DNA of 64,000 nt from NCBI GenBank assembly GCA_937949615.1, contig CALEDQ010000018.1:12161-76160 (forward strand), given 5' to 3'. The position numbers and the translations under genes were made by a program. This document shows, in pieces, positions 1 to 18,900 of the stretch. Numbering within the stretch: position 1 is the stretch's first letter; every line of letters begins with the position of its first letter. The notes beneath the pieces were generated by a model that was not told the DNA's origin, searched no databases, and was given only the letters and a program-made list of their open reading frames with translations. Source of the stretch: an uncultured bacterium. GTDB taxonomy: Bacteria > Muiribacteriota > Ozemobacteria > Ozemobacterales > Ozemobacteraceae.

Positions 1-243
1 ATGTTGTCGCCATATCGTGAGCCCTTTTTCGGTCTGGGTTTCGCGCTTTACAGCGACAAGGGGCCCGGCCTGTTTTTCGGCCACACCGGCAACACCGAGG
101 GTTACCGGTCGATGTTCATCGCCCATGAGTCGAGCGGCTGCGGGGCATTCATTCTCGCCAACAGCAATAACGCCGACCCGGTTATCAAAGAAACAGTCAA
201 CCAGATCGCCATTTCTGAAGGCTGGCCTGGCTTTAACTGGTAA
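1..243 (+). CDS. C-terminal fragment of a serine hydrolase / beta-lactamase-fold protein (5' end outside window)
   Basis: ORF runs off the window start. Tail ...GHTGNTEGYRSMF...FILANSNN resembles the C-terminal region of class C beta-lactamase/esterase-fold proteins. A stem-loop terminator follows. Confidence 0.45.
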   Translation: MLSPYREPFFGLGFALYSDKGPGLFFGHTGNTEGYRSMFIAHESSGCGAFILANSNNADPVIKETVNQIAISEGWPGFNW

Positions 244-253
244 CCGATAAAAA

Positions 254-288
254 ACGCCCATGGAGCTTTCTCCATGGGCATTTTGGGT
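254..288 (+). terminator. Rho-independent terminator
   Basis: Seen in sequence: GCCCATGGA-gctttc-TCCATGGGC stem-loop followed by ATTTTGGGT, directly after the stop at 243. Confidence 0.6.
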
Positions 289-330
289 AATGCTTTGCTG
301 AAAGCTGCTTGTGAAAATCAGGTTGAATAT

Positions 331-525
331 GCCTGAATTTCATATCATTACCAGCCATGAAACCGGGGCCTTATAAAACCTTGCATCAGTTGCCCTGATT
401 GTTATATCGTTCTTTAAACAGCCGATTGCCGCATTGAATTGTCACGGCTTACAGAAATAACCGAGGGGCAGCGTAAAAATGACAGTTGCATCTGCAGAGA
501 TTTTACAGCAAAGAGCCGCAGTATG
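331..525 (+). repeat. Direct repeat copy A (promoter+leader cassette), roughly 80-85% identical to 9131-9335
   Basis: Seen in sequence: gcctgaatttca...cttgcatcagttgccctgattgttatatcg...cttacagaaataaccgaggggcagcg...gacagttg...cagagattttacagcaaagagcc aligns with 9131-9335. Confidence 0.8.
381..408 (+). promoter_or_regulatory. sigma70-like promoter inside repeat copy A (-35 TTGCAT, 16-nt spacer, -10 TATATC)
   Basis: TTGCAT at 381-386 and TATATC at 403-408. The same hexamers and spacing are conserved in copy B (9182-9209). Located about 115 nt upstream of the hsdR ATG. Confidence 0.5.
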
Positions 526-2904
526 AGCAAAAAGCAGCTCTCAGAACGCGATATCTGCACCAAATTCATTACCCCCGCGCTCGAAAAAGCCGGCTGGGAC
601 ATCGCAACTCAGGTGCGCGAAGAGTTTCCCATTACCAACGGCCGCATTATAGTTCGCGGCAAAATGCACACCCGCGCCAAAAATAAAAGGGCCGACTACG
701 TGCTCTTCTACAAGCCTGGTATTCCGATTGCCGTGATCGAGGCCAAAGACAACAATCATTCTGTCGGCGACGGCATGCAGCAGGCCCTCGGCTATGCCGA
801 AATGCTGCAGGTGCCCTTCGTTTTCAGCAGCAATGGTGATGCCTTTCTGTTTCATAATGCCATGACCACCGGAAAAACCGAGCAGGAAATCAGTCTCGAC
901 CAGTTTCCTGCCCCCGATCATCTCTGGAGTCTTTTGAAGAGCGGCAAAGCCATCGATTCTGACCAGGAAGCCCTGATAACCCAGGATTACTACAGCGACG
1001 GCGGCAACAAGACACCGCGCTACTACCAACTGCTGGCCATCAATAAAACCATCGAAGCAATCGCTCAGGGAAAAGACCGCATATTGCTGGTCATGGCGAC
1101 CGGCACCGGCAAAACGTTCACGGCTTTTCAGATCATCTGGCGCCTCTGGAAATCAAAAGCGAAAAAGCGCATTCTCTTTCTCGCCGACCGCAACGTGCTT
1201 GTCGACCAGACCATGACCAACGACTTCAAGCCCTTTGGCCCGGCAATGACCAAGATTCAGAAACGCCAGGTCAACAAGTCGTTCGAAATCTATCTTTCGC
1301 TGTATCAGGCCGTCACCGGCACCGAGGAAGAGAAAAACATCTACAAACAGTTCAGCCCCGGCTTTTTCGACCTGGTCGTCGTCGACGAGTGTCACCGCGG
1401 CAGTGCCGCTGAAGACTCGAACTGGCGCCAGATTCTCGAATATTTTTCCTCGGCCACCCAGATCGGTCTGACTGCGACTCCCAAAGAAACGAAAGACGTT
1501 TCCAACATCGATTATTTTGGTGAGCCAATCTACACCTACTCTCTCAAACAGGGTATCGAAGACGGCTTTCTGGCGCCTTACAAGGTTGTCCGTATCGATA
1601 TCGACAAAGACCTCGAAGGCTGGCGGCCGAAAAAAGGCATGACCGATAAAAACGGCAACCTGATAGAAGATCGCATTTTCAACCTCAAAGACATGGATCG
1701 CACGCTCGTTCTCGAAAAACGCACCGAACTGGTCGCGGCCAAAATCAGCGAGTTTCTGCGCAATACCAGCCGGTTCGACAAAACCATCGTCTTCTGCGAC
1801 AACATCGATCATGCCGAACGCATGCGCCAGGCGCTCGTCAACGAAAACGCCGACCTGGTCGCCGAAAATTCAAAATATGTCATGCGCATTACCGGCGATA
1901 ACGAAGAGGGCAAGGTCGAACTCGACAACTTCATTTTTCCCGAGTCGCGCTACCCGGTCATCGCAACCACTTCGAAGCTGATGAGCACCGGCGTCGATGC
2001 GCAAACCTGCAAACTGATCGTTCTCGACCAGCATATTCAGTCGATGACCGAATTCAAGCAGATAATCGGGCGCGGCACCCGCATAAATGAAGATTTCAAC
2101 AAGTATTTCTTCACGATCATGGATTTCAAAAAGGCGACTGAACTGTTCGCCGACAAAGATTTCGACGGCGACCCGGTTTCGATCTATAACCCCAGGCCCG
2201 GGCAGCCGGTAACCCCGCCCGATGATGAAGAAACCACAACTGGCGACGCTTACCCGCCCGGCGAAGAGAACATTGCAGGCGGCGGCGTTGCCGACGATTA
2301 CAGCGGCAACGGTGGCGGCCTCGAAGACGGGCAATCAGGGGCTGCCAGAAAATACTACGTCAACAACGTCGAAGTTAAGGTTTCGTCAGAGCGCGTGCAA
2401 TATTTCGATGCCAGCGGCAAACTCATCACCGAATCGCTGAAAGACTACACCCGCAAAACTCTCAGCCAGGAATTTTCAAGCCTCGACGACTTTCTCAGCC
2501 GCTGGAACAGCAGCGAGAAGAAGAAAACCATCATCGAAGAACTCGCCCGCGAGGGTGTCTTTTTCGAAGCTCTGGCCGAAGAGATCGGCAAAGACCTCGA
2601 CCCGTTCGACATCGTCTGCCACGTAGCCTGGGATATGCCGCCCCTGTCGCGCAAAGAGCGCGCCGAGAACGTTAAAAAGAAAAACTATTTCACGAAATAT
2701 GGGGAAAAGGCCCGCCGGGTTCTCGTTGCACTGCTTGACAAGTATGCCGACGAAGGCGTGACTCATATCGAAGAAACCCAGATTCTGACTGTAGACCCCT
2801 TCAGTCGGATCGGTACGCCTGTCGAAATCATCAGAGATTTCGGCAGCCTCGAAAACTACCGGCAGGCGGTTCTTGAACTCGAACAGGCCCTCTACTGCGC
2901 CTGA
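523..2904 (+). CDS. hsdR: Type I restriction enzyme R subunit (HsdR)
   Basis: Begins [26 protein letters not shown] (classic HsdR N-terminal nuclease region). Helicase motifs VMATGTGKT and [10 protein letters not shown] (DEAH). Annotated from ATG 523 rather than ORF start 439, because 439-522 lies inside the repeat/leader. RBS-poor, but ATGA-overlapped by a leader uORF. Confidence 0.9.
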
Positions 2905-2922
2905 TTTAACGGAGAAAACGCA

Positions 2923-4374
2923 ATGTCTATCACCACCCTCATCAAAACCATTCAGGACATCATGCGCAAAGACGTCGGCGTTGACGGCGATGCCCAGAGA
3001 ATCAGCCAGATGGCCTGGTTGCTTTTTCTCAAAATTTTCAGCGACAAGGAAGCCGAATGGGAACTGACTGTCAGCGGCTATAAATCGCCACTGCCGTCGA
3101 GGTTCCGCTGGGCGAACTGGGCCGGCAACCCCGAAGGCATAACCGGCGAGGAACTGATCGACTTCGTTAACAACAATCTTTTTCCGGCGCTCAAAAAGCT
3201 TGCCACCACTGCCGGCGTCAGCGAACAGGGCAAGGTCGTCGGCAGCGTCTTCGAAGATGCCTACAACTACATGAAATCAGGCACCCTGCTGCGTCAGGTC
3301 ATCAACACCATCGAAGAAAACTTCGACTTCAATTCTTCAGCTGACCGGCACCTGTTCAACGATATCTACGAAAAAATTCTGGCTGACCTGCAGTCAGCCG
3401 GCAATGCCGGCGAATATTACACGCCCCGCGCCGTCACGCAGTTCATGGTCGACATCATCGATCCGCAGCTCGGCGAGACGGTTCTCGACCCGGCCTGCGG
3501 CACCGCGGGTTTTCTGACCAGCACCATCGAGCATCTGCAGAAGCAGGTAAAGACTCCCGATGACCGCAAATGTATCGCCACCTCGATCAACGGCGTCGAA
3601 AAAAAGCCGATGCCGCACATGCTGGCAGTTACGAACGTCATGTTGCATGGTATCGATGTTCCGAGCAGAATCAGACACGACAACACCCTGACCAGGCCGC
3701 TCAAAGATTATGGCCCGCGCGACCGTGTCGACATCGTCATCACCAACCCGCCATTTGGCGGCATGGAAGAAGACGGAATCGAAAACAATTTTCCGAAAAA
3801 ATATCAGACCCGCGAAACGGCCGACCTGTTCATGGCGCTGATTATGCACCTTCTCAAACCTGATACGGGCAGGGCCGCCGTGGTTCTTCCCGACGGCTTT
3901 CTCTTCGGCGAAGGGGTTAAAACGACGCTCAAACGCGAGCTTCTCGAAGAATTCAATCTGCATACGATTGTACGGCTGCCCAAGGGCGTTTTCAGCCCCT
4001 ATACCGGCATCAATACGAACATTCTCTTTTTCGAAAAGGGAAAACCGACGCAGCATGTCTGGTTTTTCGAACACCCCTACCCTGAAGGGTACAAGTCGTA
4101 TTCGCGGTCAAAGCCGCTGACCATTCAGGAATTCGACCGTGAAAAAGCCTGGTGGAACAATCGCAAAACCACCGAACACGCCTGGAAAGTGCCGGTCGAA
4201 GAAATCGTCGCCCGCAATTACAATCTCGACTGCAAAAACCCGCATGTAACCGAAGTAAATCATCGTGACCCCGAAGAGCTGATGGCCGAATATCAACAGA
4301 CAGTCGCCCGGTTAAAAGCCGTGCAGCAGGCTCTCAAAGCCGAGCTGATCGCCTGTCTCGGAGACAAGACATGA
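2923..4374 (+). CDS. hsdM: Type I RM N6-adenine DNA methyltransferase subunit (HsdM)
   Basis: HsdM N-terminal domain (KDVGVDGDAQRISQMAWLLFLKIF), SAM motif LDPACGTAGFL and catalytic NPPFG. RBS GGAGA 8 nt upstream. Confidence 0.93.
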   Translation: MSITTLIKTIQDIMRKDVGVDGDAQRISQMAWLLFLKIFSDKEAEWELTVSGYKSPLPSRFRWANWAGNPEGITGEELIDFVNNNLFPALKKLATTAGVSEQGKVVGSVFEDAYNYMKSGTLLRQVINTIEENFDFNSSADRHLFNDIYEKILADLQSAGNAGEYYTPRAVTQFMVDIIDPQLGETVLDPACGTAGFLTSTIEHLQKQVKTPDDRKCIATSINGVEKKPMPHMLAVTNVMLHGIDVPSRIRHDNTLTRPLKDYGPRDRVDIVITNPPFGGMEEDGIENNFPKKYQTRETADLFMALIMHLLKPDTGRAAVVLPDGFLFGEGVKTTLKRELLEEFNLHTIVRLPKGVFSPYTGINTNILFFEKGKPTQHVWFFEHPYPEGYKSYSRSKPLTIQEFDREKAWWNNRKTTEHAWKVPVEEIVARNYNLDCKNPHVTEVNHRDPEELMAEYQQTVARLKAVQQALKAELIACLGDKT

Positions 4375-4447
4375 GTATCTGCAGATTTGTTACTCTGACT
4401 GAGAATTTGAAAGACCTGTTTGTGCAAGAGCCTCTTGCACAAATATT

Positions 4448-4681
4448 GTGCCGATGAAATGCGCATATTGTGCTGAAAATTCAGAAGAAACTGTGGAAAA
4501 AATTATTCAGGCCATTAAAAATGACCCCTGCATAACTATTGAAAAGTTGAGCCAGATAACAGAGTTATCGACAAGGGGCATTGAATGGAATCTGAAAAAG
4601 CTCAAGGAAGCCGGTCGCATAACAAGAGTCGGGCCAAGAAAGGGCGGACACTGGAAAGTTCTGAATCCGGAAAATGAATAA
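4448..4681 (+). CDS. Small winged-helix DNA-binding protein (wHTH, 77 aa) embedded between hsdM and hsdS
   Basis: Motif ...ITIEKLSQITELSTRGIEWNLKKLKEAGRITRVGPRKGGHWKV resembles C-terminal wHTH modules of Fic/AlbA-type regulators. Its stop overlaps the hsdS ATG (ATGAATAA). Confidence 0.5.
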   Translation: MPMKCAYCAENSEETVEKIIQAIKNDPCITIEKLSQITELSTRGIEWNLKKLKEAGRITRVGPRKGGHWKVLNPENE

Positions 4682-6380
4682 AGAAACACGCAAGTTGCTT
4701 GATAAACACTTCGAAACTGCTTTTGATACGCCCGACGGCATAAAGAAGCTGCGTGAGCTGATTCTGACTCTGGCCATGCGGGGCAGACTCGTGCCACAAG
4801 ACCAGAACGATCAGCCGGCCAGCGAACTGTTAAAAGAAATCGCCGCCGAAAAAGACCGCCTGATCAAAGAAGGCAAACTCAAACCGCAAAAACCCCTGCC
4901 TCCAATCGACCCCAAAGAAATCCCCTATCAGCTTCCAAAAGGTTGGGAATGGGTTAGATTGCAAAACGCTTTTGATGTTCGCGATGGAACGCATGATACG
5001 CCTAAATATACTGTTTCAGGCTTTCCATTAATTACCAGTAAAAATCTCTATACCGGAAGACTTAGTTTTGAAGACGTGAAGTTCATTTCGGAGCATGATC
5101 ATAATCGAATAAAGGAACGTTCTAGAGTAGATCTTGGTGACATTCTTTTTGCCATGATTGGTAGTATTGGCAATCCAGTTATAGTGGAATGTGAGCATGA
5201 GTTTTCAATAAAAAATGTGGCTCTTTTCAAGTTTTATAAGGCAAACACACCGGAAAGATTGTTTTTACATAACTTTTTGCTATCCTCTCAAACCGCGATG
5301 AAAGCAATCTCATCTGGAGCTGTGCAAAGCTTTGTTTCTTTAAATTTTATTAGAAATTATTTATTTCCGCTACCGCCGCTTGCTGAGCAAAAGCGTATTG
5401 TGGCGCGGGTTGAGCAGTTGATAGCGCGTTGTGATGAGCTTGAGAAGCTGCGGGCGGCGAGAGACGAAAAACGGCTCGAAACGCATGCGGCGGCGCTGAA
5501 TGCGCTGTTTGCTGCCGCTGACAGCGGCGATTTCAGCACTGCCTGGAAATTCATCAGCCGCAATTTCGACGAACTGTATACGGTGAAAGAAAACGTCGCC
5601 GAACTGCGCAAAGCCATTCTGCAACTGGCCGTCATGGGCAGACTCGTGCCCCAGGACCCGAACGACCAGCCCGCCAGCGAACTGCTAAAAGAAATCGCCG
5701 CCGAAAAAGCCCGCCTGATCAAAGAAGGCAAACTCAAACCACAAAAACCCCTGCCTCCAATCGACCCCAAAGAAATCCCTTATAAGCTTGCAAAAGGTTG
5801 GGAATGGGTAAGGTTTGATCAATTAATTGATCAACGCTTTCCTATTTCCTACGGGGTTCTTGTTCCCGGTCCAGATACCGAAGATGGTGTTCCATTTGTA
5901 AGAATTGAGGATCTTACAATCAAGAACCCCAAAGAAAAACCTGGAAAAAGAATTGGGCAAGACATTGCATCTAACTATGAACGCACAAAACTAGAAGGGG
6001 GAGAGATTTTAATGGGTGTCGTCGGAAGCATCGGAAAACTGGGCATTGCACCAGAAAGTTGGAAGGGAGCTTATATAGCAAGAGCAGTATGCCGAATATT
6101 TCCATCTTCACAAGTTGATAAGAAATATATTTTATGGATTCTTCAAAGCAATTTCATGCAAACTTGTTTTGCTAGTGAAACAAGGACTCTTGCCCAACCA
6201 ACACTAAATATTGGGCTCATAAGGGCTGCGCTAACTCCTTTGCCGCCACTTGAGGAGCAAAAGCGGATTGTAGCGCGGGTTGAGCAGTTGATGGCATTGT
6301 GCGATGGTCTCGAACAGAGTATTGCCGCTGCTGACGGCAGTCGGGCGGCTCTTCTCGATTCACTGATGGCAAATGTATGA
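4674..6380 (+). CDS. hsdS: Type I RM specificity subunit (HsdS) with two target-recognition domains
   Basis: Two AT-rich target-recognition domains (TRDs) separated by duplicated conserved helices: RGRLVPQD..NDQPASELLKEIAAEK..RLIKEGKLKPQKPLPPIDPKEIPY twice, and PLPPL(A/E)EQKRIVARVEQL twice. This is the standard circular HsdS architecture. Confidence 0.9.
   Translation: MNKETRKLLDKHFETAFDTPDGIKKLRELILTLAMRGRLVPQDQNDQPASELLKEIAAEKDRLIKEGKLKPQKPLPPIDPKEIPYQLPKGWEWVRLQNAFDVRDGTHDTPKYTVSGFPLITSKNLYTGRLSFEDVKFISEHDHNRIKERSRVDLGDILFAMIGSIGNPVIVECEHEFSIKNVALFKFYKANTPERLFLHNFLLSSQTAMKAISSGAVQSFVSLNFIRNYLFPLPPLAEQKRIVARVEQLIARCDELEKLRAARDEKRLETHAAALNALFAAADSGDFSTAWKFISRNFDELYTVKENVAELRKAILQLAVMGRLVPQDPNDQPASELLKEIAAEKARLIKEGKLKPQKPLPPIDPKEIPYKLAKGWEWVRFDQLIDQRFPISYGVLVPGPDTEDGVPFVRIEDLTIKNPKEKPGKRIGQDIASNYERTKLEGGEILMGVVGSIGKLGIAPESWKGAYIARAVCRIFPSSQVDKKYILWILQSNFMQTCFASETRTLAQPTLNIGLIRAALTPLPPLEEQKRIVARVEQLMALCDGLEQSIAAADGSRAALLDSLMANV
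4773..4957 (+). repeat. Intragenic direct repeat in hsdS (copy 1 of conserved-region repeat, about 92% identical to 5633-5813)
   Basis: Seen in sequence. Encodes the conserved HsdS helix. Such repeats are a substrate for TRD reassortment. Confidence 0.85.
5633..5813 (+). repeat. Intragenic direct repeat in hsdS (copy 2)
   Basis: Aligns with 4773-4957. A second shorter pair lies at 5368-5445 / 6238-6320. Confidence 0.85.
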
Positions 6381-6397
6381 TATTTTCGTGATCAGGC

Positions 6398-7303
6398 ATG
6401 AATTACAAACGAAACCATAAATTTCCGAGCCGGTCCAGTTTCTGGGATGCGGTGAATACTTTCGGCGAAGATATGGTTTATCGCCGCAACGATCCGCCGA
6501 TAAAGCCTGAATTCCAGATTTTTCTTGAAACCGAAACTCATTATATGATCTGCGACCTGCGCCTGCGCGACAAATTGACCGATGCAGAACATCTAAAGAA
6601 GCTCGACGAAGAAGTATTTAAATTGACCGAACATAGAATCAACGCGGTCAGACGCATCAACCCTGACGGCCGCGCCGAATACATATACAAAAGGCCGAAT
6701 GGCGTAATTCTGACGCCTGACTTTCATTTCGACACCTATGTTAAATTCTGCTTCAATTTCCGTGATTACGTTAAACTGGTCTACTGCTCCAACAAAAAAG
6801 AAACGGGTGATGAGTTCAATAAAAATTTCCACTCTTTCTTCTGCAGATGGTTCACCGACTCGCGCGGCAAGGAGCTCAAATCGGTCTACTGTGAACAACA
6901 GTGGTTTCCGGATGTTAAAAAGTGGCTGCTCAAAAAAAAGCAGAACCCGGCTTATTCGGTGCCACACTCAGAATTCAAAGACACCCCGATTGAAGGCCGG
7001 TTAGAGGGCATTCTGTTCAAAAACGGGATTGCATACACCAAGCAGGCTGAATTTTTTCAGCACGAAATGAAACTCACTGTTCCAGACTTTCTGCTTGAAA
7101 AGCAGAAAATTGCAATTTACTGCGATGGCACTGAGTTTCACAAAGACACCCAGGCCATCATCCGCGACAAAGTGCAGGATAGAAGGCTGCAAATCAATGG
7201 CTACATGGTCCTGAGATTTTCAGGTTCCGAAATATTGGGCGATATCGCGCTCTGCGAGCGCGATATTCTCGACGCGATAAAGACAAGAGAATCAAAAAGC
7301 TGA
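6398..7303 (+). CDS. Uncharacterised protein with C-terminal DUF559 / Vsr-like PD-(D/E)XK endonuclease-type domain
   Basis: C-terminus IAIYCDGTEFHKDTQAIIRDKVQDRRLQINGYMVLRFSGSEI matches the DUF559 signature (xDGxxH...RD..R...L...G..VLRF). The N-terminal roughly 200 aa has no recognisable family. Begins 18 nt after the hsdS stop. Confidence 0.6.
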   Translation: MNYKRNHKFPSRSSFWDAVNTFGEDMVYRRNDPPIKPEFQIFLETETHYMICDLRLRDKLTDAEHLKKLDEEVFKLTEHRINAVRRINPDGRAEYIYKRPNGVILTPDFHFDTYVKFCFNFRDYVKLVYCSNKKETGDEFNKNFHSFFCRWFTDSRGKELKSVYCEQQWFPDVKKWLLKKKQNPAYSVPHSEFKDTPIEGRLEGILFKNGIAYTKQAEFFQHEMKLTVPDFLLEKQKIAIYCDGTEFHKDTQAIIRDKVQDRRLQINGYMVLRFSGSEILGDIALCERDILDAIKTRESKS

Positions 7304-7376
7304 CTCAGTTTTCGCGTTCGCCTGGCGCCGCCTGATAGCCGCTCGGAACTTTACGTAGTATATTCAGACAGGCAGG

Positions 7377-8369
7377 ATGGGACTGGAGGTAAGAAATGCC
7401 GTTTCCCGTAGTTGTCCACAAAGAGGGCAAAAGCTCGTTCGGGCCAGGTTTATGAAAGATTACAGACTGATTTTTGAAGTAGTGCATGGCAGTCAGGCTT
7501 TTGGCCTGGATGGCCCGGGCTCAGACCTCGATTTGAAAGGCGTGATTATCGGGCCGGCGTTCTGGTATTTTGGTTTTTTAGAAAGCCCTGAACAGCTCGT
7601 TCTTAACAAGGATCACACGCTTTTCGAACTCCGGAAATTTTTCAGACTGGCAATAGATGCCAACCCGACTGCAATCGAGATGCTGTGGGCTCCCCAGAAC
7701 TGCATCAGAGAGTGCTCTCCAATGGCCGAAAAGCTGCTGAGTGCCAGAGAAAAGTTTTTATCTCTCAAAGTGGCAGACAGTTTCGGCAAATACGCCCTCT
7801 CACAGCTGCGCCGCATCAAAACTCATCGCAGATGGCTGCTTGAACCGCCCAAAACACAGCCACAAAGAGAGGAATTCAATCTGCCCGGCAAACCCGTCTT
7901 TTCAGATGACCAGATTGGTGCGGCTGAATCATTGATTGAAAGCGGCAAGTTGACACATGCCGATCTGCCGCCAAATTTCATGCTGATACTCGACCGTGAA
8001 AGAAGTTATCGTGCCGCCATCAAGGAATGGCAGCAGTTTCAAACCTGGCAGAAAGAGAGAAACCCGGCGAGAGCAAAGCTGGAGAAAGAATTCGGCTATG
8101 ATACAAAGCACGCCTTGCACCTTGTCAGGCTCTTAAGAATGGCACTCGAGATATTAATTTCAGGTGAAGTAATCGTTCGCAGACCAGACCGAGAAGAGCT
8201 TCTGGCAATCAAACAGGGAACCTGGAAATTCGACCAGCTAATTGAATACGCCGAGTCGATGAATCAGAAAATCCTTGAGGCCAGAAACCGCAGCAGTCTG
8301 CCTGAGTTTCCCGACAATGAAAGTCTCAATCTATTATGCACAGAAATTCTGAGAGGTTGTTTTGCATGA
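7377..8369 (+). CDS. Pol-beta superfamily nucleotidyltransferase, paralog 1 (alternative start ATG 7452)
   Basis: hGS-x9-DhD motif: VHGSQAFGLDGPGSDLDLKGV. C-terminal helical domain. Paralogous to the next ORF. The stop overlaps the next start (ATGA). Confidence 0.65.
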   Translation: MGLEVRNAVSRSCPQRGQKLVRARFMKDYRLIFEVVHGSQAFGLDGPGSDLDLKGVIIGPAFWYFGFLESPEQLVLNKDHTLFELRKFFRLAIDANPTAIEMLWAPQNCIRECSPMAEKLLSAREKFLSLKVADSFGKYALSQLRRIKTHRRWLLEPPKTQPQREEFNLPGKPVFSDDQIGAAESLIESGKLTHADLPPNFMLILDRERSYRAAIKEWQQFQTWQKERNPARAKLEKEFGYDTKHALHLVRLLRMALEILISGEVIVRRPDREELLAIKQGTWKFDQLIEYAESMNQKILEARNRSSLPEFPDNESLNLLCTEILRGCFA

Positions 8370-9136
8370 TTGAAAAAAAACAGATAGAGCTCGGCCAGGA
8401 ATTCGTTTCCAGAAATTTTGACAAGGGAAAGCTGCTGCTGGTTGCGGTAACTGGCAGTCATTTTTATGGGTTTCCGGCTCCGGACAGCGATCTGGATCTG
8501 AAAGGCATTCACGCGGCCCCTACCAGGCAGATACTTGCACTCGAAAAACCTGCGTCGGCACACAATGTTGAGGAAATGTGGCGAAACTGTCTCTGCGATT
8601 TTTCCAGCAATGAAATAGAACAGGCTTTGCGACTTCTGATAAAGGGAAACGGCAACATGCTCGAGAGAATATTTTCCCCTTATCAGCTTTTTGAAACAGA
8701 AGAAGCGACGCGATTGAAAGAAATAAAGACCGCTTATCTTTCACAACGATTCTTTCATCATTACACCGGCTTTTTTCAGAAAAAATGCGCTGAGTTTGCG
8801 AAGAGCGATTTTTACCTCATCAAGCCTTTGCTCTATATCTACAGAGTCGCTCTGACCGGGATTCATCTTCTGAAAACGGGCGAGGTCATTGGTGATGTGC
8901 GAAAACTGGCGCCAGAATACGGCTTTTCTGAGGTTGATGAGCTGATAAAAATCTACTCTGCGACTTCTGAAAAAAAGTCGCTTGATAAAGCTTCTGCAAG
9001 CCAGTTCGTTGCAAGATGGCCAGAGCTTGAGAACAAGCTGAACGATGCCCTCAGCACCAGCTGTCTGCCGGAAGTTCCGGGCGACCCTGATGCCTGTTCC
9101 GACCTGCTGGTTGAAATCAGATTGAAATCTGCCTGA
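8366..9136 (+). CDS. Pol-beta superfamily nucleotidyltransferase, paralog 2
   Basis: VTGSHFYGFPAPDSDLDLKGI motif, similar layout to paralog 1 (RlaP-like minimal NTase fold by recollection). Start chosen at MIEKKQ with GAGAGG RBS. Confidence 0.65.
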   Translation: MIEKKQIELGQEFVSRNFDKGKLLLVAVTGSHFYGFPAPDSDLDLKGIHAAPTRQILALEKPASAHNVEEMWRNCLCDFSSNEIEQALRLLIKGNGNMLERIFSPYQLFETEEATRLKEIKTAYLSQRFFHHYTGFFQKKCAEFAKSDFYLIKPLLYIYRVALTGIHLLKTGEVIGDVRKLAPEYGFSEVDELIKIYSATSEKKSLDKASASQFVARWPELENKLNDALSTSCLPEVPGDPDACSDLLVEIRLKSA

Positions 9137-9335
9137 ATTTCAGGTCATTGCTGGCCTTGAAAACTGAGGTCTTATTCAATCTTGCATCAATTAACCTGAT
9201 TGTTATATTGTTTTTTAACAGCCTATTTTACCCCATTGATATTGTAACGACTTACAGAAATAACCGAGAGGTCGCGTGAGGATGGCAGTTTTTTTTATCA
9301 CCAGAGACTTTGCAGAAGAAAGCCAAACAACCTTT
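9131..9335 (+). repeat. Direct repeat copy B (promoter+leader cassette)
   Basis: Aligns with 331-525. Lies between the NTase2 stop and the tcmP start. Confidence 0.8.
9182..9209 (+). promoter_or_regulatory. sigma70-like promoter inside repeat copy B (-35 TTGCAT, 16-nt spacer, -10 TATATT)
   Basis: Hexamers conserved in position with copy A. About 160 nt upstream of tcmP. Confidence 0.5.
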
Positions 9336-9371
9336 CTGAATGTCTGTATGGCAAAATTTTGAGGTTTAATA

Positions 9372-10493
9372 ATGACAGAAAAACTTCACAGCAAGCCATT
9401 TGATGAGGGAACCAGACTGAAATTAAATATTTTCCGAAAGTGCTTTCGTGAATGGCTGCCGGTTTTTATTCACAATCCGAAGATTGATAAAATTTTCGTT
9501 TATGATTTCTTTGCCGGGCCAGGCCGTGATTCGGAGGGCACGCCCGGCAGTCCTCTTATATTGCTGGAAGAGGCGCGCGGCGCTGATTTACAGTATTGCA
9601 AAACCGGAAAAATCAAAGATGTTATTTTTGGTTTCAATGACAAAAACGAGTCAGAGACGCTTAAACAAAACATTGCCGCGTATTTCAATCAGTGCTGCCA
9701 AAGGAATTGTAAAAAGAAAGAATGTCTCTACGAAAAGAAATGTCATTGTGCAAATCTTGATTTTAAAAGCCTTTTTGCCAGCGAGAACCTGAAAAAAATA
9801 CTGGCAAACAAATCTTTTGCCAAATTCATCCTGCTTGATCAATACGGTTTCAGCCAGGTTGATGAGGAAGTTTTCAGAAAACTCGCTGGTTCCCCAATGA
9901 CCGATTTTATTTTTTTTATAGCTTCATCTTTTGTCGACCGGTTCAAAGACCACGAATACACCAGAAAGTATCTCAATACAGAAAAGATTGATTTCTCTTC
10001 GGTAAAACCTGTTCAAAGGCACGGTTTAATCGCTGATTACTTTGCATCACTGGTTAACAAACCTGAATTCTATCTACATCATTTCACAATAAGAAAGGGC
10101 TCCAATCATTATGGGCTGATTTTTGGAACAAATCACACATACGGAATGGAGAAATTTCTTAAAGTCTGCTGGGAAGAAGATACATTTGCCGGCGAATCAA
10201 ATGACAACAAATGGGGTGATGAGCAGGAAGGAAGCCTGTTTTTTGGAATTGAGCCCCCGAAAAAAATTGAAGCAGTCAAGGCTGAGCTTAGGGAAATGCT
10301 ACTTCAAGGTAAAATCGACAACAATATCAACGGGCTTAAAACGGCAATGAGAAAGAGATGCCGGCCTAAAGTTTTTGTTGAAGTAGTCAGGCAGCTTGAA
10401 AAAGAAAAGAAAATAGAAAGAATCGGTGAAACGGTAAATAATCGTGCTGAAAGGATACACGAAATTCCTGAATACAAAATCAGGCCACTTTAG
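9372..10493 (+). CDS. tcmP: Three-Cys-motif partner protein (TcmP family)
   Basis: N-terminus ...KLNIFRKCFREWLPVF...VYDFFAGPGRDSEGTPGSPLILLEE matches my recollection of the TcmP family (TIGR04474). That family is invariably encoded next to a Gp37/Gp68 protein, as here. Unusual Cys-rich insert CCQRNCKKKECLYEKKCHC. AT-rich codon usage. Confidence 0.65.
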   Translation: MTEKLHSKPFDEGTRLKLNIFRKCFREWLPVFIHNPKIDKIFVYDFFAGPGRDSEGTPGSPLILLEEARGADLQYCKTGKIKDVIFGFNDKNESETLKQNIAAYFNQCCQRNCKKKECLYEKKCHCANLDFKSLFASENLKKILANKSFAKFILLDQYGFSQVDEEVFRKLAGSPMTDFIFFIASSFVDRFKDHEYTRKYLNTEKIDFSSVKPVQRHGLIADYFASLVNKPEFYLHHFTIRKGSNHYGLIFGTNHTYGMEKFLKVCWEEDTFAGESNDNKWGDEQEGSLFFGIEPPKKIEAVKAELREMLLQGKIDNNINGLKTAMRKRCRPKVFVEVVRQLEKEKKIERIGETVNNRAERIHEIPEYKIRPL

Positions 10494-10525
10494 GGTATAC
10501 TTATTGAGAGTTTAAAGGGGTTTAA

Positions 10526-11242
10526 ATGGCAAGCAACAGCACAATTGAATGGACTCAAATCACCTGGAACCCGGTTACCGGGTGCACAAAAATCAGCTCC
10601 GGATGCAAAAACTGCTATGCTGAACGTATGGCCCGACGCCTGCATCTGATGCGCAGTAAAAGATACATAAACGAATTCAAGGTTACTCTACACGAAGATC
10701 TTCTTGATTTCCCCAAAAAACTACGAAGCGGGAAAAGGATTTTTGTTAATTCAATGAGTGATCTTTTTCATGAAGATGTTCCGCTCGAATTCATTCAGAA
10801 AGTTTTTCAAACAATGAATGAGTGCCGACAACACGTCTTTCAAGTTCTTACAAAAAGAAGCAAAAGACTTGCTGAACTTGCTGGAAAGCTTTCCTGGTCA
10901 GAAAACATCTGGATAGGCGTAACCGTTGAAGACAACACCAATAAAGACAGAATTGCCGACCTTAGAGCTGTTCCGGCCAAAGTCAGGTTTATTTCATTTG
11001 AGCCGTTGATTTCCGAAATAAAAAAACCCGATTTAACCGGCATTAACTGGATAATAGTCGGTGGCGAATCTGGCCCTGGAGCCAGACCCATTGTCAAAGA
11101 ATGGGTTGAAGCCCTGCAGAGAAACGCCCAGCAGTTTGATATTCCGTTCTTTTTCAAGCAATGGGGCGGAACAAACAAGAAAAAAAGCGGCAAGCTGTTA
11201 AATGGTCAGATGTTTCAGGAAAGCCCGGCTTTCGCCCTCTGA
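10526..11242 (+). CDS. Phage Gp37/Gp68 family protein (DUF5131), three-Cys motif
   Basis: Canonical N-terminus MASNSTIEWTQITWNPVTGCTKISSGCKNCYAE (IEWT..TWNP..GC...S.GC..CYA). Good RBS GGGG. Confidence 0.8.
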   Translation: MASNSTIEWTQITWNPVTGCTKISSGCKNCYAERMARRLHLMRSKRYINEFKVTLHEDLLDFPKKLRSGKRIFVNSMSDLFHEDVPLEFIQKVFQTMNECRQHVFQVLTKRSKRLAELAGKLSWSENIWIGVTVEDNTNKDRIADLRAVPAKVRFISFEPLISEIKKPDLTGINWIIVGGESGPGARPIVKEWVEALQRNAQQFDIPFFFKQWGGTNKKKSGKLLNGQMFQESPAFAL

Positions 11243-11317
11243 AAGAAAATTTAAGATACCGATTCTCTGCATCTTTCTAAGCACCTGACACAGCAAAACC
11301 CTTCATCGGTCAAGTCC

Positions 11318-11362
11318 TAAAAACAGGCACCGCCATCCATTGGATGACGGTGCCTGTAAGTT
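11318..11362. terminator. Bidirectional Rho-independent terminator between convergent genes
   Basis: AGGCACCGCCATCCATTGGATGACGGTGCCT hairpin flanked by T-runs on both strands. Confidence 0.6.
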
Positions 11363-11364
11363 TT

Positions 11365-12606
11365 TTATTTGCTGGCGGGGTTGGCGACGCGGCCCATGAA
11401 GAGGATGCTGCCGGTCGAGTTGTCGCGGACCAGGAAGATGAAGGGATGGTCAGCCTTGAACACCGGGTCCATGCTGATCGATTTGGTGGCCATTTCGACG
11501 GCGGTGGCGGCGGCGGCTTCGGTGCCTTCTTCGTTCACTTCGACGAAGGCCTTGTGCTTGATCTGCGAGATCCATAATTTGCCTTTTGGCCAGCCCATGC
11601 CGCTGAAATCAGCGACGTCCGGGGTGAAAGCGTCTTTCATGCCGAGGTCGGTGCAGGTCGGAACCAGATCATAACCGGTTTCGAGCTTGAATTTTGGCAG
11701 ATACAGCTTCACATTTTCCTCGGAGGCAGAGTCCAGTTCTGCCAGCCATGCTGCGATTTTTTCGGAGCTCAGGTCTTTTTCGAGACCGGCGAGGCCGTCG
11801 ACTTTCTGCGGCAGCACTGCGATCATTGCCAGCGATTTTCCCTTGTAAGGCATGGCGATGACCTGAAAGTCGTCTTTTTCGATGAGCTTGAAGCTGCCCT
11901 TCTGATACATGAACGGCACATTGATATTTTCTGTTGCAGACAGTCTGAAAGGGGCTTCTTTAGTCTGCTTTTCGTCGAACTGGCTTTCCCAGATGCCTTT
12001 GAAATAAATGGCATTCAAAAGAACGCAGACTGAATTTGGATCAAGCTTTTCGAGGATTTCTTCGATTTTGCCCTCGGTTTTTGTTTTTACCCAGCCGTTG
12101 ATCTTTTCGAGGTCGCCCGCGAACAGTTCAGCCGCGTAGTTTTTCTGCAGCAGGGCCTTGAATTCTTCGCTCACATCGCCGCCGGTGAGGCAGAGACCGT
12201 TGGCGATATTGAGCTTCTGACCGTCACTGTTGGCCACTGAAGCGAGTTTCTCGTTGAGCTGTCTGAACGCGTCGTGCAGCGGTTCCTGGTCGAGACCGAA
12301 AGACAAAGCTGCCTGCATTTCTGCGGCAGTATTTTCGCGGGCACCGGCATAGGTCATACCGAGCGCTGAAGAAACGCTGAATGGCGAGAAGAAGACGTTG
12401 CCACCGGCCTTGCCCAGCTGCTGATAAAGCTTAACGGCAAAGGCGCTGTTGCCTTTTACCAGGGGGGTCAGGGTAGAATCAGCCTGTTGATCTGTTGTTG
12501 TCATGGGAGCAGAACAGCAGTCTGATTCTGCTGATACTGGAGAAGCGGACGCTGCCAGTATGACGGCACAAATTACAGCACAGAATAAAACGGTGAGTCG
12601 GTTCAT
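11365..12606 (-). CDS. Serpin (serine protease inhibitor) with signal peptide
   Basis: Serpin fold hallmarks: NVFFSPFSVSSALGMTYAGA, hinge/reactive-centre-loop region EEGTEAAAATAVEMA, C-terminal PFIFLVRDNSTGSILFMGRVANP. Start placed at MNRLTVLFCAVICAV (signal peptide), not ORF start 12795. Confidence 0.85.
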   Translation of the reverse strand: MNRLTVLFCAVICAVILAASASPVSAESDCCSAPMTTTDQQADSTLTPLVKGNSAFAVKLYQQLGKAGGNVFFSPFSVSSALGMTYAGARENTAAEMQAALSFGLDQEPLHDAFRQLNEKLASVANSDGQKLNIANGLCLTGGDVSEEFKALLQKNYAAELFAGDLEKINGWVKTKTEGKIEEILEKLDPNSVCVLLNAIYFKGIWESQFDEKQTKEAPFRLSATENINVPFMYQKGSFKLIEKDDFQVIAMPYKGKSLAMIAVLPQKVDGLAGLEKDLSSEKIAAWLAELDSASEENVKLYLPKFKLETGYDLVPTCTDLGMKDAFTPDVADFSGMGWPKGKLWISQIKHKAFVEVNEEGTEAAAATAVEMATKSISMDPVFKADHPFIFLVRDNSTGSILFMGRVANPASK

Positions 12607-12854
12607 GGTATTTCCTTTCAAGGTCATGAGGGGCAATCCCGTAAGATTGTTTTCTGCTGACAATATAGTCCTATATGAGCTTACAGACAATATAATCGTT
12701 ACAACCGACCAAAAAATCGGATAATTCCGAAAATGGTTTGTATCGGTTATAATGGTTGAGAAAATTTTGTTGCCAGTCAGAATCAGATGCGGCAATGATT
12801 GATTGTCAGTGCAAAACAGCTTTTAAGCAGCTTTTTAATAGAAAGGGAAGATTA

Positions 12855-14021
12855 ATGAGCACCAACCAGGAAACCAGAAAAATTTTCGGACAGATCGCTG
12901 ATAAATACAAACTGCCGGCTCTGGCAGAGATTATCAAAAGCGACGAACACATAATCTGGAAAAAAGACATCACCATCTGTATCGCCAACATTCTCAAGGC
13001 TGCCCAGGCTGACGGAGACACGAAAGAACTGCTTAAAGACGCCAAGAATATGTATAACGGGCCGATTTTTGCGATAAATGCCGCTGAAAAGAAGTATCTC
13101 ATCAAAGCCGAGCCCGATTTTGACAAGGCCATGAAAGACCTGGCCAAATTCGACTTCTGCTTCAAACTCAGCCCTTATCACGTAATCAACACCTATCTCG
13201 CCATTCTGATCGCCCAGATCACTGAGCAAGACCCGAACGCTCTGCTCAAAAAAGGCGAAGAGCACATGGAAGCCTTTATCGCGGCTTCTCTGAAAGAAAA
13301 CAAGAACTGGAACAAAGACACGCTAACTTCAAAAAACCCGAAGCTGATCATTCCGATCGGGGCGGCCGGCTGCGGCAAATCGACCTTTTATCACGAACTG
13401 GGCAATGTGGTTAATGCCTCATGCGACAATATCAGATACATGCTGTTCAAAGAATTCGGGCCCTGCTTCGCCCCTTGGGAAAGCACGCTGGCATGGTTCG
13501 TGGTCAACCGCATGACCGACCTCTATCTCGGCCGTGGCTACAGCGTCTTCTACAACGGCGTCAATACCGATCTTGAATATCGCTCACCCATCACCATGGA
13601 AAATCCTGACGCATTGTATGCCGGCATTCCGTACCGCATGAAACTGGTCTATTTCGAGCCTACCGTCAGCCTTACCAGCAGTGAAGTCAACGAGCTCAGA
13701 GCGATCAACCTGTGGGGAACCACGCTCGACAAGGTCGATAGAAAAGGCCTGAGCCCGAATGTCTGCAAGATACTCGACCTCATTCAGACCAACACCGAAA
13801 GAACCATGGAACGCACCAAAGCGATTCGCGAAGGCAAAGCCGAACAGGACCCCTTCGACATTCTTTACCCGGTACCGCCCGCAATCGTAAAAATGTTCAT
13901 GGAACAGTCGTTTGCGAAGCCCCAGGGCCCGAACGTCGTGGTCGTGCCGCGCAAAGAGATCCCGGATGCAGCCGAACGTGCGGCTTTCTATCGCAAATAC
14001 GCCGAAATGTCTGCCAATTGA
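12855..14021 (+). CDS. P-loop NTPase / predicted kinase-like protein
   Basis: Walker A LIIPIGAAGCGKSTF. No further family assignment possible by eye. Start at MSTNQ with AAGGGAAG RBS. Confidence 0.55.
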   Translation: MSTNQETRKIFGQIADKYKLPALAEIIKSDEHIIWKKDITICIANILKAAQADGDTKELLKDAKNMYNGPIFAINAAEKKYLIKAEPDFDKAMKDLAKFDFCFKLSPYHVINTYLAILIAQITEQDPNALLKKGEEHMEAFIAASLKENKNWNKDTLTSKNPKLIIPIGAAGCGKSTFYHELGNVVNASCDNIRYMLFKEFGPCFAPWESTLAWFVVNRMTDLYLGRGYSVFYNGVNTDLEYRSPITMENPDALYAGIPYRMKLVYFEPTVSLTSSEVNELRAINLWGTTLDKVDRKGLSPNVCKILDLIQTNTERTMERTKAIREGKAEQDPFDILYPVPPAIVKMFMEQSFAKPQGPNVVVVPRKEIPDAAERAAFYRKYAEMSAN

Positions 14022-15962: not shown

Positions 15963-18900
15963 TTGTTTTGCGTTCAAACCATTTTTTTAAAAGCATTTTG
16001 CTTGTTCTTGTTTTTTTTTCTGACAGGGATTGCAGCATTTAATGGCAGCCAAATTCTGGCTGACCAGGCAAAAGACGAGGCAGCCGGAGCTTTAAAATCA
16101 TTGCTCAAGCTCCAGGCAGGCAAGGTTCTCAATAGAATCGACAATGATCCGAACAGAAAAAGCCAGGCTTTTGTCGTAAGAATCCCAGATTCTGACCTCT
16201 CAGCCATGGTTTTCAAAAACAAGGACAGCTGGTATGCCGGGATTACCTTCGATATCCAGCGCATCTCTTCAGGCCGCATTCTTACCGATATTTATGACGA
16301 CCTTGCAAAATTGTTCGGTACACCGGAGCTGAAAACCCTTACTCTCGTCATCGGCGAGAAACAGGGAACAATCAGCTTTGACACACTGCCGAAGGCGCTG
16401 CAGGATTCTCTTGCCAATTTCAAAGATCATAACGATTTTGGCGAAGAACAGCCCCAGGTAACTTTCGCCGAAGGTGTTTCCTTTTTCGGCAGCATTGCGC
16501 CACCGTCAAAAGGTGCATTACAGACAGTTTCCCGCGCCATTCTTCTTGGGAGTAAGCTGGACAGTGATCTTCGCATTTCGGGCCGCGTCGGCGATGAAAT
16601 TCTCACCGAGCTCCTTAAAAAATGCAGAGTTAGTCAGGAAAACAGCAAAGACGACAAAAAAGAGAAGTTCACCATTCAGGATCTGAGCCTGCGCGTCGAA
16701 CTACCCAATCTGATTCCGGTTCCTTTCAGTCTGATGAAGAAGGAAACGGCCCGCAAAATCTTCTTTCTTGAATTCTCAAAAACCTTCATGAGCGTGTCTT
16801 TCGAAAAAGACAAGATCAAGCTGGGTGCAGGCCGCGGTGTAACAGTCTCATTTCTGGGCAAGGATTACACCATCGCCTCAGACCTGACAATCACCGAAAA
16901 GGGCGACAACAAAAAAGATCCGCAATGGACAGTTGCCATGGCCGGTCTCATTGAATTCAAATCACCGGTCGTCATCATTCCGCCGCTTCTCAAGCTGCAT
17001 GCTGTAGAGCTCAAAGGCAGTTTTTCGAGCGATTTTGTTGCCACCCAGACGCAAGCAATGGTCGATGTTGGTGTCGATACCACCATCAGCCTCGGCAACT
17101 CAGGAAAATTCGTTGCCGGCGTTATGGTTGAAGCGTCACAGGAAGGCAAAGAAGCCGAACTGAAAAGCATCGAGCTGAGCCTGAAACAGGATGGCAAAGG
17201 CAAGCTCCTGGCTTTTTCGGATATTCCCGGGGTTAAATCGATTCCGATGATCAATGAATTTACGATCAAGGATGTATCGATCGGCATCAGCCCGCGGGAT
17301 GAAATTCCGGATCTTTATCTGACCGGCACCATGGGCTGGAAAAGAGGCAAGAGTCAGTATCAGTTCGCCCTCTGGGAAAAGGACGCTTCATTTTTCCTGA
17401 TGGCAAGAGCCAGCGACTTCGTTCTCAGTGAAGTTCTCGGTGTCAAAATCGGAGCCGACACCCTCGATTCGATCAAAATGCCAGATGCCCTGCTGGTTCT
17501 TTCGAGCCCCGACCCTGACGCAAAACCAGTAAAAATCAGCGAGCTGCCGACAAAGCTGAAAAATGTTTTCAAGGGATTCTCGACAGGCGATGACAAGGTT
17601 CCGACCGTCAGCGACGGCATCGCTCTGATGACCAAGTTCGACATCAACACGATGACCGGTGAGATCCAGAAATTCATGAAGACTCTCGGGCTTCAGGGTC
17701 TGGGCATTGACGGCGGCATTGTATTTTCCGGTTCAATTTCAGGGCTGCTCGAAGGGCAGCCGCGCCTTGAGGTCAGCATGCAGCTCAGCGGGTTCCATTT
17801 CCCTGACAAGCAGCCGTTCGATTTCCTGATCTCATTCAAAGATGCTTCAGCAAAGCTGTTCGTTCGTGTCGATGTGCCGGCAATGGTTTTTCAGATAGGT
17901 CTCGGCAGCAATCTGAATGTAGATATGCCCAGAATCGGTCAGGGCAAGAGTGATTCTCTAACTTTCGGCGGCGAGTTCTATCTCAATGTCTGCGCCGTGG
18001 GCTACGGCATCAGAGTTGGCGGCTATCGTGACGGCGACTGGAACAATCCCTTCGGAATCGGCAATCTAACCCTTACCGATACCGCCTTCATTTTTGGCAT
18101 AGACGGAGAAGGAGCTCTGGAAGTAGGGTTTGGCAGTGGTTTCAGCATCAAAGGTCTTGAAAACCGTGCAAAAACCAATAACAAGTGCCTGACTCCTGAA
18201 GAAAAAAAGAAAATGGCTGAAGATCTCATGAATCGCGAGAATGCCAGCGCCACCCCTGTCGTTACCAAGGATATCTCTGAAAAAATCGGCGGGGTTGTGA
18301 ATTTTATCATCGCCAGACCGCCGATTCCGAAAAAGCTGGCTTTCTACTTCAACTGCAGCAAGTCTGGATTTTTGCCGCTGCTCGAAGCCAACGAATCACT
18401 CCTGCAGGGCATTATTGCCGGCCCGGGGGTTCAGGAATTTGCCAAACTTCTGCCCGAAGCAGAAAAGAAAGCAACTCTGGACATTCTTAAACAGCTGGAA
18501 AAAACCTCACTCATAGATCTTTTCAAGCTGCGCGATCTGCCTCTGCCCCTTATTGATTTTGAAGACCTCGTCGTCTATTTCTCGACACCCGGCGCAATAC
18601 TGCCTGGTTTCAAAGAAATCAGCGGCCTTGGTTTCTCACTGCAGGGCAAATCGTTTTTGTCTCTGCTTGGCAAAAGGTATTCGCTCAATGAATCAGAAAT
18701 TACCCTGACCCTGGCAAAAGGCCTGATTCTCAAGAGCAGTGGCCCGGTTCTCGACTTCGGACCGTTCAAAATGTCGGATAATGTTATCGATATCCATGCT
18801 GGTATTCCGATCATTCACGGCGATGACGTCCCGCATTTCACCATTTCCGGCAATGGCCAGATGCTCTTCTATAAAGGCTCGGTTCTGGCACACCTTGGCC

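Follow-up and report, generated by a model that had tools for sequence, protein, structure and literature searches.

A DUF559 nuclease and a pair of RlaP nucleotidyltransferases beside a Type I restriction operon: probably two independent units at one rearranged bacterial locus

The stretch analyzed here (the window) comprises 64,000 nucleotides (nt) of contig CALEDQ010000018.1 from an uncultured Ozemobacteraceae bacterium. It carries a Type I restriction-modification (R-M) operon followed by a gene for a DUF559-domain endonuclease (6398..7303) and two genes, NT1 (7452..8369) and NT2 (8366..9136), for nucleotidyltransferases (NTases) of the Pol-beta superfamily. These genes, like every feature placed below between positions 290 and 11242, lie on the forward strand. 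The original prediction had proposed that the nuclease and the two NTases could be one immunity module on the Type I operon, in which the NTases would signal or tag and the nuclease would be the effector. Our results indicate that the trio probably consists of two independent units joined by a recent rearrangement. The first unit would be an R-M cassette made of hsdR, hsdM, a small winged-helix gene, hsdS, and, as accessory and terminal gene, the Vsr/DUF559-fold endonuclease. The second would be a resident pair of RlaP-family NTases, co-translated, co-inherited, and fused in some lineages, which is likely a heteromeric RNA 3'-end nucleotidyltransferase. With this, a false lead is removed, as the locus would hold no nuclease plus dual-NTase defence system.

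The co-occurrence analysis covered 27 NTase loci from genomes, 80 from metagenomes, and 3 others with annotation (loci are numbered from L001). The genome loci came from an NT2 scan with one genome per species, and the nearest were labelled Candidatus Ozemobacteraceae or Riflebacteria. The three genes of the window are co-oriented and close, and they sit in a defence island with the Type I R-M system upstream and the PADLOC candidate system PDC-M30 downstream, which would suit a single module. The trio also recurs in L001; however, L001 is 94–96% identical to the window at the nt level and is thus the same locus in a sister strain. Recurrence of the three genes elsewhere had been named beforehand as the deciding test, and this near-identical locus (96% nt) was the only recurrence observed. 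DUF559, hsdM, hsdS, TcmP, and DUF5131 were found beside NTases in L001 only, so no other NTase locus had a DUF559 or hsd gene. In the opposite direction, no RlaP genes were present at DUF559 loci except the window and L001.

In two relatives the pair occupies this chromosomal site and the nuclease is missing. In L002 and L042, whose NTase genes are 95% and 88% identical to those of the window at the nt level, the order is the upstream gene (its 3' end is the first feature of the window, 1-243), NT1-NT2, an intergenic region, hicA, hicB, and the serpin gene (window 11361 onward); neither the R-M cassette, DUF559, nor TcmP/DUF5131 occurs there. The hic genes of L002 matched HicA_toxin (E = 2.9e-18) and HicB_lk_antitox (E = 6.4e-44). 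In the window, the DUF559 gene and NT1 are separated by a 148-nt spacer that contains a hicAB toxin-antitoxin (TA) remnant (7339..7455), namely the last 17 hicA codons with the stop, then the first 16 hicB codons. By blastn, this remnant matched L002 (2591-2695), L003, and L042, where the segment lies 3' of NT2. The hicB remnant meets the sequence upstream of NT1 at GGCAAAAGCTCGTTCGGG (window 7425-7443). This sequence of about 20 nt is present twice in L002, upstream of NT1 (605-629) and in the 5' end of hicB (2671-2696), and it is probably the microhomology used in the rearrangement. Neither NTase matched a PADLOC-DB model. Given the relatives without the nuclease and the hicAB remnant inside the spacer, a single immunity module of nuclease, NT1, and NT2 is extremely improbable. 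The position of the pair beside the R-M cassette appears circumstantial, because the pair is not linked to defence genes elsewhere.

The trio had also been placed inside a repeat-bounded cassette. The repeat itself is real: window 305-516 and 9105-9320 form a direct repeat of about 80% identity (0 chance matches in 100 shuffles), the direct repeats D3, D4, and D6 of copy A are about 81% identical to 9126-9290, and repeat motif searches gave 2 matches against 0 expected. Its reading as a border did not hold. Copy A (290..516), directly 5' of hsdR, was recognized by aligning it with the ends of NT2 from the window, L001, L002, and L042; it consists of a decayed copy of the 3' coding end of NT2 (about 290-336) and the intergenic region that normally lies 3' of NT2. 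Copy A is a rearrangement scar and not the border of a functional cassette. Copy B (9105..9320) comprises the NT2 3' end with its native downstream intergenic region, and lies 5' of tcmP here and 5' of hicAB in the relatives.

The segment of about 210 nt made up of the NT2 3' end and the intergenic region was located at window 290-516 and 9090-9320, at L002 2255-2440, and at L042 2100-2440. In close relatives the same intergenic segment precedes three different cargoes, namely hicAB, the Type I R-M genes with DUF559, and TcmP/DUF5131, and in the window TcmP/DUF5131 fill the place that hicAB has in L002 and L042. One segment ahead of three cargoes suggests an integration hot spot. The NTase pair would be the resident, and the Type I plus DUF559 cassette and TcmP/DUF5131 would have arrived after the same intergenic segment. 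Duplication and a deletion at the microhomology could have given the present gene order. An Rfam scan of window 1-12000, aimed at a structured RNA within the repeated segment between genes, found no family at E ≤ 0.1, and the promoter/terminator scan gave no signal above shuffled expectation.

The gene structure of the two NTases was largely as first described, that is, paralogous Pol-beta enzymes sharing a GS-x9-SDLDLKG motif and an ATGA overlap; the NT1 start was corrected. The NT1 open reading frame (ORF) opens at 7377, and alignment with 17 homologues placed the start at ATG 7452, resulting in a protein of 305 amino acids (aa). The 25 extra codons are part of the hicB remnant, not of NT1. 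NT2 (256 aa) begins with the ATG at 8366, which overlaps the NT1 stop codon TGA (8367-8369). The shared motif reads HGSQAFGLDGPGSDLDLKG in NT1 and TGSHFYGFPAPDSDLDLKG in NT2. With 32% identity over 85 aa (E = 1e-7) the two proteins are distant paralogues, and no further RlaP-like ORF was detected in the 64-kb window.

The Pfam check that had been proposed assigned both NTases to RlaP (PF10127, cut-off 23 bits) and the 6398-7303 protein to DUF559. NT1 scored 70.6 bits (E = 2.2e-19) over profile positions 8-141 only, and NT2 scored 108.5 bits (E = 5.7e-31) over positions 17-213. The catalytic set of NT1 (G13, S14, D25, D27, and E76) was invariant in an alignment of 18 sequences, which had a mean column identity of 68% across phyla. 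The NT2 set (G30, D41, D43, and E100) was kept in at least 90% of 48 sequences, and the Ser after the Gly was not conserved. NT1 is built from an NTase domain, a long helical insertion (about 90 aa) rich in invariant Arg, Trp, and His, and a HEPN-like C-terminal helical bundle; it also carries the motif GYDTKH..HLxRLLRM. Its predicted structure (mean predicted local distance difference test score 91.6) has strands at residues 5-59, and the C-terminal two thirds are all helical. No relevant PDB entry was retrieved by sequence, whether the query was NT1, NT2, or the NT1 profile.

NT1-NT2 is a self-contained and widespread two-gene module. In tblastn searches with nine window proteins, NT1 adjoined NT2 in 16 (L001-L004 and L006-L017) of the 27 genome loci, and in two others, L018 and L020, the NT1 and NT2 halves lay in a single ORF. 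The genes are divergent in L014 and L017, yet adjacent. Among the 80 metagenome loci, where a hidden Markov model score of at least 440 bits defined an NT1 orthologue, 21 orthologues left room downstream, and NT2 came next in 19 of these. In the three annotated loci L028, L030, and L031 the two RlaP genes overlap by 4–7 nt. Pairwise identities of NT1 and NT2 over 34 pairs were strongly correlated (r = 0.947), and none of 2000 Mantel permutations reached this value. The paired or fused class was found in Riflebacteria, Myxococcota, Acidobacteriota, and Bdellovibrionales.

Homologues of either protein are numerous. NT1 had at least 1716 at E ≤ 0.001, and its best 120 cluster representatives, 51–97% identical to NT1, all belonged to PF10127. 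NT2 matched 2411 representatives of 50%-identity clusters at E ≤ 0.001, with 93 at E ≤ 1e-30. Among the top 150 NT2 cluster representatives, 27 were proteins of 480–725 aa with two or three matched stretches, and all seven such long proteins scanned against Pfam contained two RlaP stretches. The fusion P0141 has an NT1-like part at aa 89-373 (E = 2e-25) and an NT2-like part at aa 426-672; in P0171 the order is reversed. P0103 (521 aa) was considered as a further NT1-NT2 fusion and rejected, since by BLASTP only its NT1 core was matched and the N-terminal extension is of low complexity. P0138 (743 aa) joins an NT2-like RlaP domain (residues 18-243) to a pyridoxal phosphate-dependent decarboxylase domain (324-680), and is either a true fusion or a gene-calling artefact.

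NT2 was the only conserved neighbor of NT1, and no conserved effector or antitoxin gene adjoined the pair. All-against-all clustering of neighboring ORFs gave no other family shared across the NTase loci. The 108 neighbor ORFs of 22 pair loci showed no recurrent Pfam family (the commonest occurred three times) and a handful of PADLOC matches. Outside Riflebacteria the neighborhoods were variable and mostly of housekeeping or other non-defence genes; the neighbors in L028, L030, and L031, for example, include thioredoxin, TrkA/TrkH, amidase, and encapsulin. No RNA ligase, RtcA, or RtcR was present in the annotated loci L028-L031.

The RlaP family is said to have been defined by Burroughs and Aravind in 2016; in other papers RlaP appears solely as a single enzyme associated with ligases. 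Biochemical data on the family come only from a 2025 preprint on two Pseudomonas enzymes, PfRlaP and PaRlaP (bioRxiv 10.64898/2025.12.29.696909). They add one or two nucleoside monophosphates or deoxynucleoside monophosphates to the RNA 3'-OH and prefer Mn2+, and neither DNA nor E. coli proteins were substrates. The proposed role is to restore nucleotides removed by ribotoxins before ligation (bioRxiv 10.64898/2025.12.29.696909).

Like known members of the family, such as the RlaP enzymes of P. fluorescens and P. aeruginosa, encoded in rtcB operons, and NrdC.11 of T4, NT1 and NT2 belong to PF10127 and possess the G[S]...DxD...E catalytic set. In the published description of the PfRlaP crystal structure, the NTase domain is followed by a C-terminal helical domain, with a terminal helix that packs back; the NT1 model would be in line with this description. 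The differences are equally clear. The characterized enzymes are single proteins, whereas NT1 and NT2 are distant paralogues that are obligately paired or fused; NT1 has the helical insertion of about 90 aa and the GYDTKH..HLxRLLRM motif; and the neighborhood of RNA ligases (RtcB or 5'-P ligases) that names the family is absent from the annotated NT1-NT2 contexts. Work on RlaP NTases has so far dealt only with single enzymes beside RNA ligases; the family also includes a conserved, obligate pair of paralogues, or their fusion, without a ligase, which bears on the role of RlaP enzymes in cells and phages.

NT1-NT2 is most likely a heteromeric enzyme with two active sites, as judged from the sequences, because the genes are translationally coupled and co-inherited, Rosetta-stone fusions exist, and both proteins keep the catalytic carboxylates. 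By analogy with the Pseudomonas enzymes, its most likely activity would be the template-free addition of a few nucleotides to the RNA 3'-OH in RNA end repair or tailing. Nucleic-acid tagging, which had been suggested for the NTases, fits the published RlaP activity on RNA 3'-OH; the suggestion failed where it tied the tagging to the nuclease in one module. Several observations weigh against this view of the pair. The NT1 orthologues in L054 and L062 have no detectable partner within 4–6 kb, and solo NT2-like genes occur in Nannocystaceae. RNA ligase was absent from the 25 most frequent of 69 neighbor Pfam families, a count under which a single ligase neighbor is still possible. The evidence for a heteromer is gene coupling and fusions, and the RNA 3'-tailing assignment is extrapolated from two Pseudomonas enzymes of a different RlaP cluster. 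Among the same points are the RNase toxin genes that adjoin the pair in Riflebacteria (hicAB in L002, L003, and L042, and PIN in L004) and the position of the pair in a hot spot that exchanges TA and defence cargo.

The last two observations would also fit a conflict system, either an NTase toxin of the MenT/AbiEii type, blocking tRNA 3' ends, with a paralogous NTase as antitoxin, or an RNA-repair response to ribotoxins, of which the neighboring HicA and PIN would be examples. Toxic NTases acting on tRNA 3' ends are well established (MenT/AbiEii), RlaP has been proposed in the literature as an antidote to ribotoxins, and the closest relatives of NT1 are phage enzymes. The cross-phylum conservation of NT1 (the mean column identity of 68%) is, however, unusual for TA pairs, and a toxin with a labile antitoxin would hardly be expected to occur as fusions of the two halves in both orders. 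The missing PADLOC matches, the mostly housekeeping neighborhoods outside Riflebacteria, and the lack of a linked RNA ligase also speak against it, and we consider a conflict system quite unlikely. The PIN gene upstream of the pair (L004 125-517) and the hicAB genes downstream of it (L002 2420-3034, L003, and L042) may be a coincidence in the hot spot or a lead towards RNA damage.

Among the phage relatives, NT1 matched the family phrog_388 over its full length (E = 1.4e-55). Records of cultured phages with NT1 homologues (22–39% identity) numbered 394; most are large myoviruses and jumbo phages, and rV5-like, T4-like, jumbo, and Lak phages are among them. A solo sister clade of NT1 (about 340 aa), which shares GYDTKH..HLxRLLRM, was found in 393 IMG/VR contigs. 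It was never paired in the 80 loci kept (L122-L201), of which 77 were solo and 3 had no room for a partner, and no neighbor family exceeded 15 of 78 loci of this phage-type clade. The wide distribution in phages fits nucleic-acid metabolism better than drug resistance, and so speaks against a small-molecule enzyme of the ANT/Lnu type (antibiotic nucleotidyltransferases) or a DrrA-like AMPylase that modifies a protein or metabolite, with RNA not being the substrate. As both NT1 and NT2 also score well above the PF10127 threshold and the characterized RlaP enzymes acted on RNA only, such an activity is very unlikely.

Another system for comparison is the split CCA-adding system. Separate CC-adding and A-adding class II nucleotidyltransferases occur in Aquifex, Deinococcus, and others, and these are likewise two paralogous Pol-beta-superfamily enzymes acting on the same RNA 3' ends in one organism. 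Unlike NT1-NT2, they have the class II PolyA_pol head domain and their genes neither overlap nor are fused; nothing here points NT1-NT2 to tRNA CCA ends. In MNT-HEPN, AbiEii, and MenT systems the partner is a HEPN RNase or an AbiEi/MenA antitoxin, whereas here it is a second full-length NTase, and NT1-NT2 further differ from them by their high conservation, occasional fusion, and lack of a PADLOC match. The NTases of CBASS (cyclic-oligonucleotide-based antiphage signaling system), AbiE/MenT, MNT-HEPN, and Hailong are set apart from NT1 and NT2 by the same lack of a match and by the absence of a conserved effector or antitoxin neighbor.

The DUF559 gene, in contrast to the NTases, showed a recurrent link to restriction genes. 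The original description of a 301-aa protein directly 3' of hsdS with a DUF559/Vsr-like C-terminus was borne out: the ORF starts at 6398 in the same orientation, 18 nt after the hsdS stop at 6380, and the C-terminal 100–110 aa matched PF04480 (DUF559) with 29.5 bits over residues 221-294 (cut-off 20.6). Two related profiles scored below their cut-offs, PF18741 MTES_1575 with 31 bits (38.2) and PF03852 Vsr with 23.4 bits (27), and the Vsr repair endonuclease model TIGR00632 gave 28 bits against an NCBIfam cut-off of 97.85. The protein was assigned to the Vsr-type endonuclease fold. Its N-terminal domain was correctly called novel; this alpha/beta domain of about 190 aa had no Pfam family and no PDB match.

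A total of 15 homologues was found in 5.8 billion clustered proteins, and all those with a named source come from Riflebacteria. The C-terminal catalytic residues were invariant across homologues 32–90% identical to the window protein. Restriction genes adjoined the homologues in 6 of 8 distinct contexts (Type I four times, Type III-like once, and GmrSD_N once). In L032 the homologue is directly 3' of hsdS as last gene of a Type I cassette, and in L038 it closes a Type I cassette that also has AAA_15/21 and HARE-HTH genes. In L040 it lies immediately 5' of hsdM-hsdS-AAA_21-hsdR, and in L039 it is 3' of an N6_N4_Mtase and ResIII pair, beside Gabija-like OLD/UvrD genes. In L202 (2063-4717) the homologue P0134 lies 25 nt 3' of a 596-aa protein with a GmrSD_N (DUF262) domain only; the two could be a split type IV enzyme with the DUF559 protein supplying the nuclease. 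The preceding gene is co-oriented and 1–25 nt away in the window, L032, L038, and L202, which suggests co-transcription. The complete hsdR, hsdM, and hsdS set, the co-orientation, and the recurrent linkage elsewhere together place the DUF559 gene in the Type I operon.

From linkage and fold, the DUF559 protein is most likely an accessory of the restriction cassette that cuts or nicks DNA, and its lineage-specific N-terminal domain is presumed to bind the target or a partner. The suggestion of an R-M accessory was supported for the DUF559 gene only. The small Vsr-fold nuclease family with its unmatched N-terminal domain recurs as terminal passenger of different restriction cassettes and adds to the list of restriction-linked accessory genes; a literature search on DUF559 and restriction gave nothing specific. 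The linkage has exceptions and a narrow basis: in L035-L037 the homologue is beside Fic and TA genes without a restriction gene, in L033/L034 a contig end cuts the context and no restriction gene was seen, and the 8 distinct contexts come from one phylum.

The main rival for the role of the DUF559 gene is a selfish homing or nicking endonuclease similar to I-Bth0305I, hitch-hiking at the ends of mobile restriction cassettes with no part in restriction. The gaps of 1–25 nt to co-oriented restriction genes, the position of the gene outside any intron or intein, and the invariant catalytic residues at 32–90% identity make this unlikely. The L001 copy (2807-3711) is split over two frames (ORFs 2807-3412 and 3331-3711), and may be a pseudogene, or an assembly error in this contig of 5x coverage.

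The relatives of the protein comprise NGO0050 (3hrl), Vsr (1cw0), the I-Bth0305I catalytic domain (3r3p), and the Vsr-like domains of AbaSI/PvuRts1I type IV enzymes, and the unmatched N-terminal domain sets the window protein apart from them. Vsr is partnered with a C5-cytosine methyltransferase, whereas the neighbor here is the N6-adenine methyltransferase HsdM; a Vsr-type T:G repair role is therefore without basis. AbaSI has an N-terminal nuclease and a C-terminal SRA-like domain, the reverse of the domain order in the DUF559 protein. PrrC and RloC are anticodon nucleases linked to Type I restriction loci, and here, too, an extra nuclease gene is co-oriented in or appended to the hsd operon. 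PrrC and RloC are, however, ABC-ATPase anticodon nucleases, whereas the DUF559 protein has a DNA-endonuclease fold and nothing suggests an RNA target.

A wider reading of both units can be offered tentatively, as possible rather than probable. The paired or fused NT1-NT2 might constitute a distinct two-active-site RlaP class that works without RNA ligases. One task of such a class could be to rebuild or mark particular RNA 3' ends, using two nucleotide specificities in succession. The DUF559 N-terminal domain might define a new kind of restriction-linked nuclease that joins cassettes of the Type I, Type III-like, and GmrSD_N kinds.

Downstream of copy B, TcmP (three-Cys-motif partner; 9372-10493, TIGR04474) and DUF5131 (10526-11242, PF07505) matched PDC-M30A/B with E-values of 3e-103 and 9.4e-109. 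They are a separate candidate defence pair outside the NTase module. Beyond the start of the serpin gene, three ORFs had no Pfam family at E ≤ 1e-5 (12756-14021, 421 aa; 15963-19985, 1340 aa; and 20555-21523, 322 aa); around them are serpin, a PLD-like protein, a HAD hydrolase, and peptidases.

By Pfam domain content, the upstream operon is a complete Type I R-M set. The restriction subunit gene hsdR (523..2904) encodes HSDR_N, ResIII, SWI2_SNF2, Helicase_C, and EcoEI_R_C; its ORF opens at TTG 439, and ATG 523 is the likely start. Homology with the hsdR of L032 begins at 517, and that of the whole cassette with the L032 cassette is limited to 517-7288. The N6-adenine methyltransferase subunit gene hsdM (2923..4374) showed HsdM_N and N6_Mtase (E = 3.5e-74). 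Between hsdM and hsdS, a 77-aa winged-helix protein (4448..4681; HTH_24, E = 8e-8) overlaps the hsdS start. The specificity subunit gene hsdS (4674..6380) has two target-recognition domains, seen as two Methylase_S stretches, and an internal 200-nt repeat of 90% identity (4761-4960 and 5616-5815). Its target-recognition region 5792-6237 could not be aligned with L001 2204-2646 despite 94–96% identity elsewhere, which points to a swap of the specificity domain. The passenger genes differ among related Type I cassettes, in which they take comparable places. The window cassette carries the 77-aa winged-helix gene, and L032 (4800-6266) has a protein with SLFN/AlbA_2, HATPase_c_4, and Fic-like_C domains. 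AAA_15/21, a 295-aa ORF, and HARE-HTH are the passengers in L038 (4534-7999), and those in L040 (4853-6639) are AAA_21 and a 220-aa ORF.

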